The notes under the pieces: model-generated | What the model saw: the letters and a program-made list of their open reading frames with translations, nothing else | What the model was told of the DNA's origin: nothing | The model's database searches: none | Position numbers and translations under genes: made by a program | In this document: positions 28,057 to 47,241 of the stretch, in pieces | Position numbering within the stretch: the stretch's first letter is position 1 | Layout: every line of letters starts with the position of its first letter | Source: a virus | Length of the DNA: 64,000 nt | IMG/VR virus record: IMGVR_UViG_3300035703_000038 | Span: 37,245-101,244 of that record | Reading direction: 5' to 3' (one strand)

Positions 28057-28884
28057 ATGGCTATCCTAAAAAATACAACAATTAACGATACTGGTTTTAT
28101 TAGGCTGCCAGTTGGCAATACAGCTCAAAGACCAACTGCTGCCAATGGTATGATGAGGTATAACACTGATACAAGTAAAGTTGAAATTTATTTGGGTACA
28201 GCGTGGAGTTTATTAGATCTCACTGGCGACCCAACAGATGTGTATGCAGGAGCTGCAGTATACGCTCCGCTTTCAAATAGTGCAATATTCAGTAGTGGTT
28301 CATTGACCGGCAATACTGTTGAAATAGTCCAATATGGATCTTACGGTACAGATGAATCAAACACCTCCGTAACAGTTCTAAAGATGAGCGGTGGGGCCCA
28401 AACACGTATACCTGCTGGTGATCCAGGATCTGCTCATACAGTTTCCGTTTGGTATAGAAGTAGCAGCGGTAGTGATTACGGTATGCTATTTTCAAAATAT
28501 CCTTCAGTTGGTACAAGCAGCTATGGTGTTGATATATGGGATGGTAATGGAAATGGAGCTATCTATTTGAATACGGGTGATGGCTCAGCTAACCCGTTCT
28601 CTGGATCAAGTGGTCATTATTTTAACCACAGTGACTGGAGACATTATTGTTTCACATTTGATGGGTCAACAGCTAGATACTATAGAAATGGTAGTTTAGT
28701 AGGTGCTGCTCCTACATACAGAACATTTTCTGGATACACGGGGCAATGGACAATTGGCACCTGGTCAGGACAATATTTTGGTCAGTATACACTTTCAGCT
28801 GGTAGATTCAGAAAGTTTGCAGTATGGCATGGCAGCGCATTATCAGCAACAGATGTGACAGCTCTTTACAACGCAGGGCTATAG
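28057..28884 (+). CDS. Short fibre/adhesin with LamG-like C-terminal domain
   Basis: LPVGNTAQRP..GMMRYNT anchor. WRHYCFTFDG..RYYRNG..ALSATDVTALYN. Confidence 0.7.
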   Translation: MAILKNTTINDTGFIRLPVGNTAQRPTAANGMMRYNTDTSKVEIYLGTAWSLLDLTGDPTDVYAGAAVYAPLSNSAIFSSGSLTGNTVEIVQYGSYGTDESNTSVTVLKMSGGAQTRIPAGDPGSAHTVSVWYRSSSGSDYGMLFSKYPSVGTSSYGVDIWDGNGNGAIYLNTGDGSANPFSGSSGHYFNHSDWRHYCFTFDGSTARYYRNGSLVGAAPTYRTFSGYTGQWTIGTWSGQYFGQYTLSAGRFRKFAVWHGSALSATDVTALYNAGL

Positions 28885-28893
28885 GAGAATTAG

Positions 28894-29601
28894 GTGGGTA
28901 GTCTCAAAAACACAACAATCAATGATACAGGATTTCTACAGCTACCTGTTGGTACCACTGCTCAAAGACCAACTGCTGCCAACGGTATGATGAGATATAA
29001 TTCCAATACTGGACTTGCAGAAGTGTATGCTGGTGGAGCGTGGAAAGGCTTAGCTCTTGGAAGTGAGTATGAAACACTCAACTTTGTTGGTAACAATGGC
29101 AACCTGACAATTACTAACAATGGAACAACATCAGTTGATATTGCTAAAACTCAGGGTAGTAACAGTTGGGATACGCAAGCATATGTAGCGACAGGATATA
29201 CAGCACCCGTAACTATGGAATTTAATAAGTTAGCGGATTCTGGTGACAATGGTGCTTCATATGCAATGATATCATGGAACGCTGATCCAACAACGGATGC
29301 AAGCTACACTTCTCTTGATCATGCATCATACCCATTCATGCAAAATGCTTACCACGTATATAATAATGGATCCAACCCGTTAAACACTGGTGCATGGTCA
29401 TCAGCCAGCAAGTTCTACTTAGTATACGCTACAAACGGATTCATGTATCACTATAATGGATCAACATTATTGTATTCCGTAAACTATGGATCAGGCACTG
29501 TCTACCTCGACACCTCATTTTATGCAGTAAACGGAACTTTCAGTAAATTTTCAAATATCAGAGTTATTAAAAAGGCCTGGAATGGTACAGCATACACTTA
29601 A
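28894..29601 (+). CDS. Short fibre/adhesin with a paralogous anchor and a different beta-sandwich tip
   Basis: GTG start with GGAG upstream. The first ~50 aa are nearly identical to the 28057 protein. Confidence 0.65.
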   Translation: MGSLKNTTINDTGFLQLPVGTTAQRPTAANGMMRYNSNTGLAEVYAGGAWKGLALGSEYETLNFVGNNGNLTITNNGTTSVDIAKTQGSNSWDTQAYVATGYTAPVTMEFNKLADSGDNGASYAMISWNADPTTDASYTSLDHASYPFMQNAYHVYNNGSNPLNTGAWSSASKFYLVYATNGFMYHYNGSTLLYSVNYGSGTVYLDTSFYAVNGTFSKFSNIRVIKKAWNGTAYT

Positions 29602-31062: not shown

Positions 31063-31070
31063 CATAAATA
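31063..31070 (+). promoter_or_regulatory. Late promoter variant
   Basis: Intergenic CATAAATA upstream of 31108. Confidence 0.6.
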
Positions 31071-31107: not shown

Positions 31108-31296
31108 ATGACAACGAAAATTAAACCATCTAATGTTGAAGATGCTGTATATGAAGTTACAGCTAATAACGCCAACAATCTTGGTGGTACTCCAGCCAAT
31201 CAGCATTATACGGAAGCAAGAGTAACTATTACTGGTACTGCACCAACTAATGTTGGAGCAACATCAAACGGCCATATTTGGTTAGTTTACCAATAA
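31108..31296 (+). CDS. 62-aa mini-fibre/adaptor protein
   Basis: MTTKIKPSN anchor-like start, ANNLGG motif and TGTAPTN..NGHIWLVY fibre-terminal motif. RBS AGGA. Confidence 0.55.
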   Translation: MTTKIKPSNVEDAVYEVTANNANNLGGTPANQHYTEARVTITGTAPTNVGATSNGHIWLVYQ

Positions 31297-31308: not shown

Positions 31309-34300
31309 ATGCCAGGTAAATTATTCTTCAATGACAACGGCACTCTAAGAGAAGCCGAAATCCTAAAGGTTAACGATGGCGGTATTCTCCGTAGCATTAG
31401 AGATGCCTATGTTAACCAAAATGGAACATTGAGACAGATTTTCTCTGCAACAAGAGAAACATCATTTGAAACTTCTCGTACAACTGTATTTGATACGGCA
31501 ATCACAACAACATTTGATACAACAATTGCTACAAGTAAGAGCACTACAACTGCATTTGTTACAATCTTTGATACTGGTTATGATACAAGCAAATCTACAG
31601 CAACAAACAGAAGTACAGCAACAAGTAGATCTACAGCCTATGCTACAACAAGATCTACAACTACAGTATTTTTAACCAACACTGTATTTGAAACAACAAT
31701 TGGTACAAATAGAACCACAAGCACATCTAGATCTACTACTACAGCATTTGACACCAATACTGTATTTGAAACAACTATCGACACAAATAGAGTAACGGAT
31801 ACAAGTAGATCAACAACTACAGTATTTGATACCAACACTGTATTTGATACAACAATTAACACAAATAGAAATACAGCAACAAGTAGACTAACTGATTCTG
31901 TATTTGATACTGTTGTAACAACAAATAGATCAACTCTCTCTGTATTCAATACATCAACTGTATTTGACACAACAACAGCATTTGAAACATCTTACGCCAC
32001 AACAACTATATTCAGTACAACATCTACGTTTGATACTGTTATTGATACATCAAAGAATACAGCAACTACAAAATCTACTACAACAGCATTTGACACTGGC
32101 TACGACACAAGTAGATCCACTCTTTCTACATTTGACACATCGACAGTATTCCAGACAACTACTGTATTCAATACACTAAGTGTATTTGATACAACAATTG
32201 GAACAAGCAAGTCAACAGATACAAGTAGATCAACAACTACTGCATTTGAAACAGCCTATGCAACAAATAGATCTACAATAACAACAAAGAATACTACAAC
32301 TACTTTTGATACTGTTATCAATACTACCAGAGCAACTGATACATCTCGTGGTACTACAACTGTATTCCAAACAACAACTACATTTGATACAACTATTGGA
32401 ACAACAAGAGCTACTGATACAAGTAGAGCAACAACTACTGTATTCCAGACAACTACTACATTTGCCACAACAACAACATTTATTACAACACAAGGTGGTA
32501 CAACTGTATTCCAGACAACAACAACGTTTGCAACAACATTCTACTTCAATACATCTAGACAAACAACATCAACGTTTATTACAACGTTGGGTGGTACAAC
32601 AACATTTAATACTACAACAACGTTTGGTACAACATTCTACTTCAACACAAGTAGATCTACTACATTCTACTTCAATACCAGCGTTGCTACAACGTCAACA
32701 TTTATTACATCAGCTGGTGGCATAACAACATTTATTACTACTGCTGTAGCTGGTACAAGTAGAGGAACATCAGCTGGTGGTATCACTACATTCATCACTA
32801 CAGCAGTTGGTGGTACAAGTAGAGCAACAACATTCTACTTTATTACTACATTTGGTACTTCACTGGGTGGTAATACAACATTTGCCACAACATTCTACTT
32901 CAACACAAGTAGAGGAACATCAGCTGGTGGTATCACTACATTCATCACTACAGCAGTTGGTGGTACAAGTAGAGCAACAACATTCTACTTTATTACTACA
33001 TTTGGTACATCCGCTGTTGGTGGTACAAGTAGAGCAACAACATTCTACTTCAACACAAGTAGATCTACTACATTCTACTTCAACACATCAGTTCAAACAT
33101 TCACTGTTGTAGCTGTTAATTATTATAAAGGTATTCCTATACCTTACTACATCCAAACCGCTACTACATTTGGTACAGCAGCTGGCGGTATTACAACATT
33201 TATTACTACAGTTGGTGGCATTACCAGCTTCAACACGACATTCTACTTCAATACAACTCGGGCAACTTCGGCCGGCGGTAATACAGCATTTAATACTACA
33301 TTCTATTTCAACACAAGTAGAGCAACAACATTCTACTTTATTACAACGTTCATTACTACTGCTGTTAATAATACAAGTAGAGCAACAACATTCTACTTTA
33401 ATACATCACGTGGTACATCAGCTGGTGGCATTACCAGCTTCAACACTACATTCTACTTTAACACAAGTAGAGCAACAACATTCTACTTTATTACAACGTT
33501 CAACACAACATTTTACTTCAATACAAGTAAAGCAACAACATTCTACTTCAATACATCAGTAATTACTACAACAACATTCATTACAACACTTGGTGGTATT
33601 ACAACGTTTATTACAACACTTGGTGGTACAACATCTAGAGCAACTGCAACAAGTAGGGGTACTACTTTTTACTTTAACACATCTGTTATTACATCAACAA
33701 CATTCATTACAAGTGCTGTTAACAACACATCTAGAGCAACAGATACAAGTAGATCAACCACGTTTTACTTCAATACAAGTAGATCAACAGACACAACTAG
33801 AGCAACAGACACAAGCAGAGCAACAACTACTGTATTTCAAACAACAACTGCATTTGAAACATCATACGCTACAAATAGAGCAACTGACACGTCACGTGGT
33901 ACAACCACTGTATTTCAAACAACAACGACGTTTGAAACTGCTTATGCTACAAATAGAACAACATCTACATCATCAACAACCACAACAACGTTTGACACCG
34001 TAATTGGCACAAGTAGGTCAACAACATCTGTATTCCAAACAACTACAGCATTTGAAACATCATATGTTACAAACATTTTAACAGCAACTAGTGCTGCTAC
34101 TGATACAACAAGAGTTACAGAAACTAGTAGAAACACAACGACTGCTTTCAATACCTTAGTTGCAACAAGTAAGTCAACTACATCTACATTTGACACATCA
34201 ACAGCATATGAAACAGCATATGCCACAACAAGAGTAACTGATACAAGTAGATCAACTGATACAACAATTGACACAAGTAGAACAACTGCTACTGATAGAA

Positions 34301-34818
34301 CAACAGCTACCAATAGAAATACTACTACAGTATTTGAAACTGCTTATGCTACAAATATTGCAACTTCAACAGTATTTGATACTGTAACAACATTTGAAAC
34401 ATCATACGCTACAGGTAGAAACACATCTACAAGCAGATCTACGACGTCTGTCTTTGGTACAACAACAACGTTTGAAACAACATATGATACAAATATTGAT
34501 ACAGGAACAAGTAGAACAACAACTTCTGCGTTCAATACTGTAACAGCGTTTGAAACAACATATGATACTAACATTGATACAACAACAAGCAGATCCACAA
34601 CATCTACATTTGATACAGAAATTGTAACAACGTTTGATACTGTAACTATCTTTGATACAACAACAGCTTACGATTCTCAGTATGCTACAAACCGTAGCAC
34701 AAGTAGATCAACAACATCTACATTTGAAACTGCTTACGAGACAAGCCGTAACACAGCTTACAACACTTCCCAGAACACAGCTTATATTACAACATTTGAA
34801 ACCTACATTAATACCTAA
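31309..34818 (+). CDS. Thr-rich 1169-aa self-complementary repeat protein (predicted giant beta-hairpin fibre/adhesin)
   Basis: A 46-aa head of three NxxGxLR repeats is followed by ~150 units (Tx, TxXx, TxXXXx), a unique loop VVAVNYYKGIPIPYYIQ, and ~150 mirror-ordered complementary units. The ORF is secure; the function is inferred. Confidence 0.75.
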   Translation: MPGKLFFNDNGTLREAEILKVNDGGILRSIRDAYVNQNGTLRQIFSATRETSFETSRTTVFDTAITTTFDTTIATSKSTTTAFVTIFDTGYDTSKSTATNRSTATSRSTAYATTRSTTTVFLTNTVFETTIGTNRTTSTSRSTTTAFDTNTVFETTIDTNRVTDTSRSTTTVFDTNTVFDTTINTNRNTATSRLTDSVFDTVVTTNRSTLSVFNTSTVFDTTTAFETSYATTTIFSTTSTFDTVIDTSKNTATTKSTTTAFDTGYDTSRSTLSTFDTSTVFQTTTVFNTLSVFDTTIGTSKSTDTSRSTTTAFETAYATNRSTITTKNTTTTFDTVINTTRATDTSRGTTTVFQTTTTFDTTIGTTRATDTSRATTTVFQTTTTFATTTTFITTQGGTTVFQTTTTFATTFYFNTSRQTTSTFITTLGGTTTFNTTTTFGTTFYFNTSRSTTFYFNTSVATTSTFITSAGGITTFITTAVAGTSRGTSAGGITTFITTAVGGTSRATTFYFITTFGTSLGGNTTFATTFYFNTSRGTSAGGITTFITTAVGGTSRATTFYFITTFGTSAVGGTSRATTFYFNTSRSTTFYFNTSVQTFTVVAVNYYKGIPIPYYIQTATTFGTAAGGITTFITTVGGITSFNTTFYFNTTRATSAGGNTAFNTTFYFNTSRATTFYFITTFITTAVNNTSRATTFYFNTSRGTSAGGITSFNTTFYFNTSRATTFYFITTFNTTFYFNTSKATTFYFNTSVITTTTFITTLGGITTFITTLGGTTSRATATSRGTTFYFNTSVITSTTFITSAVNNTSRATDTSRSTTFYFNTSRSTDTTRATDTSRATTTVFQTTTAFETSYATNRATDTSRGTTTVFQTTTTFETAYATNRTTSTSSTTTTTFDTVIGTSRSTTSVFQTTTAFETSYVTNILTATSAATDTTRVTETSRNTTTAFNTLVATSKSTTSTFDTSTAYETAYATTRVTDTSRSTDTTIDTSRTTATDRTTATNRNTTTVFETAYATNIATSTVFDTVTTFETSYATGRNTSTSRSTTSVFGTTTTFETTYDTNIDTGTSRTTTSAFNTVTAFETTYDTNIDTTTSRSTTSTFDTEIVTTFDTVTIFDTTTAYDSQYATNRSTSRSTTSTFETAYETSRNTAYNTSQNTAYITTFETYINT
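32755..33008 (+). repeat. Exact 104-bp direct repeat (32755-32858 and 32905-33008), 150-bp period
   Basis: Direct comparison of the two copies. Confidence 0.9.
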
Positions 34819-36921: not shown

Positions 36922-37662
36922 ATGGCAGTTCCAACAACCAGAGCTACTTTTAAAGAATATTGCCTTCGTAAACTTGGTAAGCCAGTTATTGAAATCAATG
37001 TGGATGATGACCAAGTGGAAGATCGTATTGATGAATCTTTAAGATATTATTGGGATTACCACTTCGATGGTGCCGAGAAATTATACTATAAGCACCAGAT
37101 TACATCAAATGATAAGACAAACAAGTATATAACCTTACCGGAAAATATCATCGGTGCGGTGAAGATATTCCCAGTTGGTCAAAGCATCAATACGATGAAT
37201 TTGTTTAACATTCGATACCAAATTGCATTGAATGATCTTTACACGTTGACCACTCAGTCAATGATTCCATATGTGATGGCAATGCAGCATATTCAGTTCC
37301 TAGAAGAAGTTTTAGTTGGCCAAAAACCAATCCGTTATAACAGACATAAGAATAGATTGTTTGTTGATATGGATTGGGATTTGGCTGTCGAAGGCGAATT
37401 CCTAGTTGTAGAGGCTTATGAAGTTGTGGACCCTGACACATTTGCTGATGTTTGGTCAGATCGTTGGTTAGCCCTTTATACAACAGCACAGATTAAGTAT
37501 CAGTGGGGTACAAACCTAACCAAGTTCACTGGTATGGTTCTTCCAGGTGGTGTTCAGTTCAATGGCGAGAAGATTCTAGATGATGCTAAGGCAGAAATTG
37601 AAGCACTGGAACAAGAAATGCAGACGTCCTATACATTACCAGCTTACCATATGGTAGGATAA
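36922..37662 (+). CDS. gp13: Neck protein gp13
   Basis: YCLRKLGKPVIEINVDDDQVEDRIDE, QWGTNLTKF.G..LPGGVQFNG, and gene order. Confidence 0.93.
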   Translation: MAVPTTRATFKEYCLRKLGKPVIEINVDDDQVEDRIDESLRYYWDYHFDGAEKLYYKHQITSNDKTNKYITLPENIIGAVKIFPVGQSINTMNLFNIRYQIALNDLYTLTTQSMIPYVMAMQHIQFLEEVLVGQKPIRYNRHKNRLFVDMDWDLAVEGEFLVVEAYEVVDPDTFADVWSDRWLALYTTAQIKYQWGTNLTKFTGMVLPGGVQFNGEKILDDAKAEIEALEQEMQTSYTLPAYHMVG

Positions 37663-46116: not shown

Positions 46117-47241
46117 ATGGCCACAATTCGCGAATCATTAAAGAAGCTAGCAGAGGTTGCAAAGCCTGTTCCTGGTGATGAGCAGGAATTTGTGGCTAAG
46201 CATGGCTTGAAGGTTATGGACTTTCAAGGTAAAGATGCACTATCAGCAGAGTCACCATATGACCACATTCTAAAGAATGTTGCTGCTATCAAGAAGCCAG
46301 GTGATCCAGGTAAGGATGACCATGGCCATGATGCACCAGGTGAGTCAGAGGCTGCCTATCATATGCCAGAATCGAGAGATGAAAAGATTGCTAAGCTTTC
46401 CATGATGATGGAGGCAACAATCGACCCAAAAGAACAACAGCTAGCTGATTCATTAAAGAGTCTGCTAGCTGAGACATTCTCTATGTACTTAAAGGCCCAC
46501 CACTTCCACTGGAATGTAATGGGTCCAGACTTTGCACAGTATCACGACTTCCTAGGTGAACTATACAAGGAAGTCCATGGAGCAGTAGATATGATTGCTG
46601 AGAACATTAGAGTTCTTGGTGAGCTTGCTCCAGGCAATCTTCGTACAATGGAATCGAGTCAATACACAGACCCACATCTAATGGTTGTAGACCTAATGAT
46701 GGATAACGAAAAGGTTATTGAATCTCTAAAGGCCTCATACAAGTTAGCTGAGTCAATGGACAGACTAGGAATCTCAAACTTCCTACAAGACAGAATCACT
46801 GTCCACGAAAAGCATCATTGGATGCTTCAAGCTATTGCTGGCGTTAAGGGTGAAGAGCCAATGCAAGAGGCAAAGCAGGTTGTTGGTGTTGAAATGCACT
46901 ATAAGCATCCAACAAAGAAGCCTTTCAAGGTTACACACTTCTCTGTTCAAGATGCTGAGCGTGGCAGAAAGGAATATGAGAAGATGGGTTATAAGCTTGT
47001 TGGTAAGAAAGCACAGATGGGTGAAGAAGCCGAACAAGTAGAAGAGATGGCTCCATTGCTACCAAAGCAAAAAGTAATTGCTAAGGACTTGCTATCAAAA
47101 GAAATGCAGAAGCGTAAAGAAGAACGTGCTGCTAAAAAGCAAGCTGGTGTTCAGGGTCGCCCTTCAACAATCAGTGCAGAACTTGAAGCTATGAGAAGCA
47201 GACATCAAAGATTCAAGAAGCAGATTATCGACAAGACATGA
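46117..47241 (+). CDS. Prohead core/internal head protein containing a Dps (mini-ferritin) domain
   Basis: HHFHWNVMGPDFAQYHDFLGELY..V...VDMIAENIRVLG...HEKHHWML is a Dps signature. Lys/Glu-rich flanks. Confidence 0.85.
   Translation: MATIRESLKKLAEVAKPVPGDEQEFVAKHGLKVMDFQGKDALSAESPYDHILKNVAAIKKPGDPGKDDHGHDAPGESEAAYHMPESRDEKIAKLSMMMEATIDPKEQQLADSLKSLLAETFSMYLKAHHFHWNVMGPDFAQYHDFLGELYKEVHGAVDMIAENIRVLGELAPGNLRTMESSQYTDPHLMVVDLMMDNEKVIESLKASYKLAESMDRLGISNFLQDRITVHEKHHWMLQAIAGVKGEEPMQEAKQVVGVEMHYKHPTKKPFKVTHFSVQDAERGRKEYEKMGYKLVGKKAQMGEEAEQVEEMAPLLPKQKVIAKDLLSKEMQKRKEERAAKKQAGVQGRPSTISAELEAMRSRHQRFKKQIIDKT

Follow-up and report, generated by a model that had tools for sequence, protein, structure and literature searches.

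The threonine-rich open reading frame (ORF) at positions 31309 to 34818 (+) of a 64,000-nucleotide stretch of viral DNA encodes a protein of 1169 aa whose second half is the mirror complement of its first, and this protein is probably a single-chain fold-back fibre with in-register antiparallel arms (we put the probability of this explanation as a whole at roughly 0.75). The stretch, referred to here as the window, covers positions 37,245 to 101,244 of IMGVR_UViG_3300035703_000038, a 101-kb IMG/VR virus record that encodes a T4-type portal (gp20), major capsid protein (gp23), sheath, and large terminase, all on the same strand. The major capsid protein is nearest to those of Stenotrophomonas phage DLP6 (70%), Methylophilales phage Melnitz (66%), and the Sinorhizobium phiM12 group (65%), and the source is an uncultivated T4-like myovirus. 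The fibre gene is the sole Thr-rich ORF of the window. Its product is 36% Thr, lacks Cys, His, and Trp entirely, and has only three prolines (P2, P610, and P612).

Mirror architecture and pairing code

The protein consists of a short head, two arms of nearly equal length, and a loop between them:

31309..31446 (+): head, residues 1 to 46, three tandem ~15-aa VNDNGTLR-type repeats
31447..33102 (+): outgoing arm, residues 47 to 598, 552 aa, strict dipeptide periodicity
33103..33156 (+): tip loop, residues 599 to 616, containing YYKGIPIPYY and the only prolines of the repeat region; axis at G608, whose codon starts at nucleotide 33130
33157..34815 (+): returning arm, residues 617 to 1169, 553 aa, mirror complement of the outgoing arm, ending opposite residue 47

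One dipeptide phase runs throughout both arms, with Thr making up 51% of one parity and 22 to 25% of the other. We scanned all reflections of the protein, in which residue i is set against residue c − i, and c = 1216 was the sole best axis, placing Thr opposite Thr at 149 of 561 pairs compared with 120 for the next best. Since 1216 is the sum of 47 and 1169, the repeat region is exactly bisected by G608. An earlier reading of this DNA, made from its letters alone (here the sequence-only reading), had placed the loop axis at this glycine and had residue i facing residue 1216 − i without a gap as far as the C terminus. Both statements were borne out, the second by the scan and by a printout of the reversed left arm against the right arm, in which the Thr rungs stay in register, gap-free, from the loop to the ends. 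A further statement, that the lengths of the repeat units match pair by pair, holds for the Thr frame but not for every unit, as some 6-residue units face a 4- plus a 2-residue unit and there is one 8-residue unit.

The correlation of the Thr pattern between the arms (phi) reached 0.55 at c = 1216, while the maximum among 300 shuffles of the unit order, each scanned over shifts, was 0.27; this is the sharp single peak that the sequence-only reading had anticipated. The best parallel alignment of the arms gave only 0.35, and direct-shift autocorrelation was likewise below the mirror correlation. Secondary mirror peaks (phi of 0.34) lie at shifts of +/-20 and +/-26, because the 26-aa unit has a cyclically symmetric (palindromic) Thr spacing.

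On the Thr-rich parity at c = 1216, Thr or Ser is opposite Thr or Ser at 148 of 276 pairs (134 T:T, 14 T:S or S:T). Aromatic residues on this parity face basic ones in 30 F:R and 25 R:F pairs; the remaining aromatics are paired with I, A, G, K, V, L, Q, or N. Thr is never opposite an aromatic, and the exceptions are limited to one pair each of F:F, Y:Y, R:I, K:S, and A:T. Reduced to a binary aromatic/non-aromatic string, the arms are complementary at 123 of 126 pairs; at other shifts complementarity averages 49% and does not exceed 65%, and the expectation under a first-order Markov null is 62.9 +/- 5.6. Along one strand, the two classes alternate with a probability of only 0.46, so the aromatic string is essentially aperiodic. 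These counts agree with the earlier description of partners that are complementary by aromatic/non-aromatic rules with few breaks, in an aperiodic order that fits one register only. Considered separately, the aperiodic outer arms (81 good pairs against 2 bad ones) and the quasi-periodic centre (62 against 0) each fit this axis best; in the centre alone, where the quasi-period is 10 residues and FYF faces AGG, VGG, or LGG, a register of c = 1217 comes close. All 65 Arg and Lys residues of the arms lie on the Thr/aromatic face. The opposite, non-coded face is made of small and polar residues and carries every one of the 62 Asp and Glu residues.

An inverted repeat at the DNA level was ruled out as the origin of the mirror symmetry, as none was found in the gene. 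The arms are instead related by direct DNA repeats of the same families, and since direct repeats alone would give translational rather than mirror symmetry, the mirror is not a trivial by-product of them. The mirror pattern is real and far beyond chance.

Co-evolution of the two arms

Each tandem array in the gene has a counterpart at the mirrored position, matching it in period and in number of copies:

31651..31887 (+): 78-nt (26-aa) tandem array, 3 copies, residues 115 to 193; mirror partner is the array at 34351-34616
34351..34616 (+): 78-nt array, 3 copies, residues 1015 to 1103, facing residues 113 to 201; repeat families D2 and D3, spacing 78 and 78
32296..32471 (+): 78-nt array, 2.3 copies, residues 330 to 388; mirror image is residues 828 to 886
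33793..33963 (+): 78-nt array, 2.2 copies, residues 829 to 885; exact mirror partner of the array at 32296..32471
32755..33063 (+): 150-nt (50-aa) duplication in the left arm, 91% identity, residues 483 to 585 (50 aa x 2.1)
33238..33558 (+): 150-nt duplication, 82% identity, residues 644 to 750; faces the left-arm duplication with an offset of no more than one 10-aa sub-repeat

We compared ten complete orthologues, the window gene included, of 662 to 1319 aa, taken from viral and metagenome contigs of independent assemblies:

Window protein: 1169 aa, axis c = 1216
L017: 662 aa, axis c = 710
L036: 1092 aa, axis c = 1140
L027: 1152 aa, axis c = 1200
L011 (L011:1855-5406): 1184 aa, axis c = 1232
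L031 (L031:1535-5335): 1264 aa, axis c = 1313
L040: 1286 aa, axis c = 1335
L010: 1319 aa, axis c = 1368
L013: 1287 aa, axis c = 1280
L015: 1299 aa, axis c = 1292

In eight of the ten, all but L013 and L015, c minus the length of the protein is 47 to 49, so the mirrored region would span from the end of the head to the C terminus despite a two-fold range of arm length. L013 and L015 have an extra C-terminal tail of 54 aa. Compliance with the rules of the Thr face is 98 to 99.6% in 8 of the 10 proteins.

Indels between orthologues are nearly all of even length and occur as mirrored pairs. Between the window protein and L011, these pairs are 6/6, 10/10, 4/4, 10/10, 8/8, 8/8, and 2/2 residues; against L013 they are 26/26, 40/40, 12/12, 6/6, and 12/12, and against L010 they are 26/26 and 12/12. 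Compensatory indels had been proposed as a test in the sequence-only reading, and dozens were compensated, with one or two uncompensated single-arm shifts (in L011 and L031) that we return to below. Substitutions follow the same logic. At aligned pairs the polarity of the code flips between orthologues (V:Y to Y:R, R:F to Y:I, Y:I to R:F, and I:Y to F:R), and irregular pairs of the window protein are regular in its relatives (R:I is K:F, F:F is Y:I, and K:S is R:F). Identity is 91 to 96% at Thr rungs, 57 to 67% at code positions, and 50 to 57% on the other face, and the code positions remain ~98% class-complementary despite their low identity. The tip motif, YYKG(I/F)P(I/L)PY, is kept in L013, L027, L036, and L011.

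The same code in other proteins

The fibre protein has weak sequence matches to 'baseplate wedge subunit' proteins of 1075 to 1416 aa, including a protein of phage DLP6 (AMQ65900.1). In the Thr-rich C-terminal half of each of these wedge proteins (P0002-P0009 and P0027), the mirror axis is unique, and the arms, 250 to 315 residues long, end at the C terminus. The DLP6 gene comes after gp25-like and gp6-like genes, that is, in the gp7 slot. These DLP6-like extensions carry the same Thr-rich mirror code as the fibre protein but differ from it in three respects: a wedge domain replaces the VNDNGTLR head, the tip inserts are larger, and one arm is interrupted by a globular domain. Their annotation reads only 'baseplate wedge subunit protein' and makes no mention of a fibre.

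In the genome of the window itself, the homologous wedge domain (49% identity, phrog_17744) is encoded by a separate gene of 664 aa (L009:1341-3335), directly followed by a Thr-rich paralogue of 2275 aa (L009:3332-10159, equivalent to C1:27331-34158, upstream of the window). Arms 63-529 and 757-1223 of this paralogue mirror each other at c = 1286 around a 228-aa Gly-rich head. The paralogue also has a weaker, second candidate hairpin (1299-1448 and 1457-1606), and its distal part shares a recurring DSGAGTM(K/V)STSK motif with the C-terminal tails of L013 and L015. The wedge and hairpin genes are adjacent in L009, with overlapping stop and start, and are one fused protein of 1288 aa in DLP6-like phages (P0003; DLP6 AAY80_265), a natural split/fusion pair in the gp7 slot.

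The mirror-coded hairpin is thus found as a portable shaft that carries different anchors and different tips. We group such proteins in a working class, an unpublished family recognised by a unique mirror axis, Thr:Thr and aromatic:non-aromatic pairs on one parity, and equal arms, all of which the fibre protein displays. One further Thr-rich protein (P0025, 498 aa) has W or Y alternating with K, H, or R, followed by a globular C-terminal domain, and has no unique mirror axis; it may represent a single strand of a hairpin made of two chains.

Head domain

Residues 2 to 48 match the profile of phrog_13729 (E = 3.2e-9), which places the head in a family of unassigned function. An alignment of 27 sequences has invariant D9, G11, N22, D23, G25, N36, and G39. 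The head is common to ~20 small proteins, in which it is followed by unrelated globular C-terminal domains. With the 27-sequence alignment, AlphaFold2 predicted three consecutive beta-hairpins (predicted local distance difference test [pLDDT] score of 68). A Foldseek search of this model against the PDB gave no neighbour at an E value of ≤0.001, and a homologous-protein search with residues 1 to 110 gave nothing at an E value of ≤1e-5. Given this modular architecture, the head is presumed to be an attachment (anchor) domain. Among the small proteins with three VNDNGTLR repeats, P0014, P0020, P0022, and P0023 begin with a hydrophobic segment resembling a signal peptide, and the head may also, judging by these sequences, be carried by secreted, possibly cellular, proteins.

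Proposed model

The mirrored arrays, equal arms, paired indels, polarity flips, and recurrence of the code in unrelated protein contexts together give strong support, at the level of sequence, to antiparallel pairing of the two arms in one register, as the sequence-only reading had proposed. In the model that we favour, the head of three small beta-hairpins would anchor the protein, and the chain would extend from it as one continuous beta-strand of ~552 residues, reverse at the Tyr/Pro/Gly loop YYKGIPIPYY, and return antiparallel in strict register, with residue i across from residue 1216 − i and the C terminus beside the head. One face of the ribbon would be a Thr:Thr ladder broken by an aperiodic series of 126 positions at which aromatics meet Arg, Lys, Ile, Val, Ala, or Gly. 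This aromatic code could act as an address for zipping that fits one register only, and the irregular spacing of 2- and 6-residue units would also restrict the register to one. Length would evolve through even-numbered insertions, deletions, and tandem duplications that reach fixation only when both arms carry a matching change.

Cross-strand Thr:Thr, aromatic:Arg/Lys, and aromatic-over-Gly pairs are favourable in antiparallel sheets, and such contacts would stabilise this fibre. The sequence-only reading went as far as a monomeric, two-stranded hairpin of ~180 nm, zipped by cation-pi and aromatic-over-glycine contacts and acting as a virion filament or adhesin, and we consider each of these elements plausible. 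The length follows from 0.33 nm per residue, and twist or supercoiling would shorten it. We lean toward one chain per fibre, by analogy, because the module is fused to or encoded beside the gp7-slot protein and gp7 of T4 is a monomer present in 6 copies per tail (PMC3004832). A beta conformation, pairing within one chain, attachment by the head, and a role as a fibre all appear likely, the last because the gene ends a tail-fibre module in conserved synteny and shares its head with proteins bearing other distal domains. The protein may function as a filament or adhesin with a receptor-binding Tyr/Pro tip or may be a whisker or spacer.

Several observations weigh against this model or limit it. 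A single-sequence AlphaFold2 model of tip residues 508 to 708 had a mean pLDDT of 35.8, which is unusable either way and provides no structural support; similarly, a prediction for a complex of three 181-residue tips, based on a 6-row alignment, scored 0.00 and is no evidence either way. The segregation of basic and acidic residues to opposite faces hints at face-to-face packing with a second ribbon or a partner, and we know of no precedent for a free two-stranded ribbon of hundreds of residues with both faces exposed. The location of the protein in the virion is suggested by gene order only, and the wedge domain that anchors our argument for one chain has weak homology to gp7, its best PDB sequence match being T4 gp7 at an E value of 0.14.

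Exceptions among the orthologues also count on this side. In L011, the YKGFPIPY loop sits 17 residues off the axis of the outer arms, and ~100 tip-proximal residues fit c = 1197 while the remainder fit c = 1232, an asymmetry of 35 residues. L031 is only 84% regular, with local register shifts. These anomalies, which include the uncompensated single-arm shifts, fall in the periodic, assembly-prone centre that short-read assemblers handle poorly, and they may be real bulges, intermediates with an uncompensated duplication, or misassemblies. In the window protein, the loop lies exactly on the axis set by the outer arms. However, in the likely source run the periodic centre (window positions 32650 to 33480) is covered only by short contigs that break there, so its copy number rests on the original assembly. 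Contigs of four DNA sequencing runs over the gene were too fragmented in the repeats to reveal population indels, and their joints were repeat artefacts; no RNA run was listed for this sequence.

Alternative explanations

The rival that survives best retains the same fold-back chain but assembles it as a bundle of hairpins, most likely a trimeric six-stranded antiparallel tube like the T4 gp37 needle, with one face buried and the code serving to keep packing volume constant per layer. Most phage fibres are trimeric (PMC3004832), the gp37 needle is itself a six-stranded antiparallel fold-back (PMC9659904), the opposite faces of basic and acidic residues suggest contacts between ribbons, and big-versus-small complementarity would suit a tight core. 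We nevertheless judge a bundle less likely than one chain per fibre, though it is a serious rival: the module is fused to a wedge protein in the slot of the monomeric gp7, the three repeats of the head lie within one chain, burying 65 Arg and Lys residues in a narrow core, or all of the acidic residues, would be awkward, and there are no His or other metal-binding residues of the needle type.

The code alone cannot separate pairing within one chain from pairing between two antiparallel chains, which would double the length of the fibre and place a head at both of its ends. We consider the latter improbable given the conserved Gly/Pro/Tyr turn exactly on the axis and the kinetic advantage of intramolecular closure. 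Moreover, the paralogue and the wedge proteins have a globular tip between their arms and an N terminus anchored in the baseplate, which forces the chain to return. Least credible of all is that the arms are unpaired, forming a beta-solenoid or a disordered, possibly glycosylated Thr-rich spacer whose mirror is a by-product of internally symmetric repeats: the cyclically palindromic 26-aa unit with its peaks at +/-20 and +/-26 and the lack of a hairpin in the AlphaFold2 model fit that explanation, but those peaks are far below the main one, the aperiodic binary code is complementary at shift 0 only, the best parallel alignment is poor, and the paired indels, polarity flips, and equal arms over a two-fold length range would be left without explanation.

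Comparison with known systems

Searches of Pfam, PHROG, NCBIfam, and PDB sequences gave no match to the shaft, and the whole protein had only a chance match in the PDB (E = 2.8). Blastn and tblastn searches of the gene against 50,697 phage records also gave no match, probably due to low-complexity masking, and the ESM Atlas returned only viral clusters below 0.9. A full-text literature search, in which coverage of subscription journals was incomplete, turned up no account of a Thr-rich fold-back fibre with a mirror code, nor did we encounter the design among solved structures.

The closest topology is that of the T4 gp37 needle, and the closest physical analogue is the single-layer sheet of Borrelia OspA and of the PSAMs engineered from it. 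The needle is trimeric and six-stranded, with antiparallel strands that run out and back (Bartual et al. 2010, as described in PMC9659904). The fold-back fibre proposed here would likewise run out to a tip and back with both ends at the base, although here this is read from sequence covariation only, and it has no sequence relation to gp37 or to the families of long-tail-fibre distal subunits in PHROG, Pfam, and the PDB. In the needle, core His residues reportedly coordinate iron, and each chain contributes arms of tens of residues. The fibre protein, by contrast, is His-free, and the needle arms are far shorter than 552 residues. The gp37 needle is not known to have a Thr ladder or a pairing code of the mirror type.

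The single-layer beta-sheet of OspA and the PSAMs is antiparallel, lacks a conventional hydrophobic core, and has cross-strand ladders of side chains, and in PSAMs alternating residue patterns were used to enforce antiparallel register (PMC9523718). In OspA, unlike in the fibre protein, a small number of short hairpins link two globular domains; OspA has no strands of ~550 residues and no aperiodic address code, and it is not a virion fibre. T4 fibritin (wac), a collar/whisker fibre, is a parallel trimeric alpha-helical coiled coil of 53 nm (PMC3004832). The fibre protein resembles it in being encoded by the last fibre gene before the neck genes (here with two intervening genes), in its N-terminal attachment end, and in its long, thin predicted shape. 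However, it has a beta-type dipeptide periodicity, no heptads, and no Pfam or PHROG match, and neither a coiled coil nor a foldon was found. The Thr-ladder beta-solenoids of the TxT insect antifreeze type have the translational symmetry of a constant coil, whereas the unit order of the fibre protein is aperiodic and its mirror correlation is the stronger one.

Conceptually, the protein is similar to an RNA stem-loop, which likewise has antiparallel self-complementarity, a unique register, compensatory substitutions, paired indels, and occasional bulges. It differs in that the alphabet is one of side-chain classes on alternate residues rather than of bases, with the pairing chemistry deduced rather than known.

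Genomic setting

The fibre gene is the last of a block of tail-fibre-like genes (an S74-chaperone fibre, Laminin-G proteins, and DUF7936). On its 3' side are a 48-aa ORF, two genes without assigned function, and, beyond these, the neck, terminase, and sheath genes, with the portal and capsid genes also downstream. The immediate neighbours are as follows:

31063..31070 (+): CATAAATA motif, 38 nt 5' of the 62-aa ORF, resembling the T4-type late promoter core
31108..31296 (+): small ORF, 62 aa, directly 5' of the fibre gene; also immediately 5' of the orthologue in L010 (95% identity), L013, L011, and L017
34855..35001 (+): small ORF, 48 aa, directly 3' of the fibre gene, charged-rich and heptad-like; downstream at all eight orthologous loci, 73 to 91% identity

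The order of small ORF, fibre gene, small ORF, two genes, and neck protein gene is kept in eight loci. Across these syntenic loci the neighbouring genes are 83 to 89% identical and the fibre gene is 64 to 70% identical with many indels. Such divergence amid conserved neighbours is typical of an exposed, fast-evolving virion appendage. It is possible that the 62-aa ORF encodes a partner or assembly factor of the fibre; it had no family match in Pfam, PHROG, NCBIfam, and PDB searches.

The T4-type late promoter core is TATAAATA. Two copies of CATAAATA flank the fibre gene (31063 and 34819), each 5' of one of the small ORFs. This arrangement is a weak hint of a late promoter for the fibre region, one that we do not accept, as the total of 4 copies in the window is at the level of chance. 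Searches of NCBIfam and the PDB were uninformative for the small flanking ORFs and for the conserved pair of genes further downstream (328 and 297 aa), and gave no support to the idea that the latter are glycosyltransferases acting on the Thr-rich fibre.

Two other features of the window were observed. The adjacent proteins encoded at 28057-28884 and 28894-29601 have a near-identical N terminus of ~55 aa (LKNTTINDTGF...GMMRYN) and different C-terminal domains, one of them Laminin-G-like, a pattern suggestive of one shared adaptor to which interchangeable distal domains are joined. In the head module, the ORF at 46117-47241, which lies between the portal and capsid genes, encodes a protein of 374 aa with a ferritin-like domain (PF00210, E = 6e-20).

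Implications

If the fold-back model is correct, it describes a novel construction principle for long protein fibres, in which one chain zips onto itself and the register is encoded in its sequence, with covariation as readable as in RNA helices. Since the reflection scan gives both the axis and the arm length, such fibres could be recognised and measured from sequence. Our most specific proposal is tentative and falls somewhat short of even odds: a single polypeptide would form a two-stranded beta-ribbon of more than 150 nm, free-standing or lightly bundled, with its register written in a binary side-chain code. Such a ribbon would be a protein counterpart of the nucleic acid duplex, evolving by compensatory changes, mounted on several phage attachment domains, and in principle reprogrammable. 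It would offer a testable design principle for programmable protein nanofibres, and it raises the evolutionary question of how matched duplications in two distant parts of a gene come to be fixed. For T4-like phages of soil, freshwater, and estuarine samples, the model would explain a class of giant Thr-rich ORFs that are now annotated as hypothetical.

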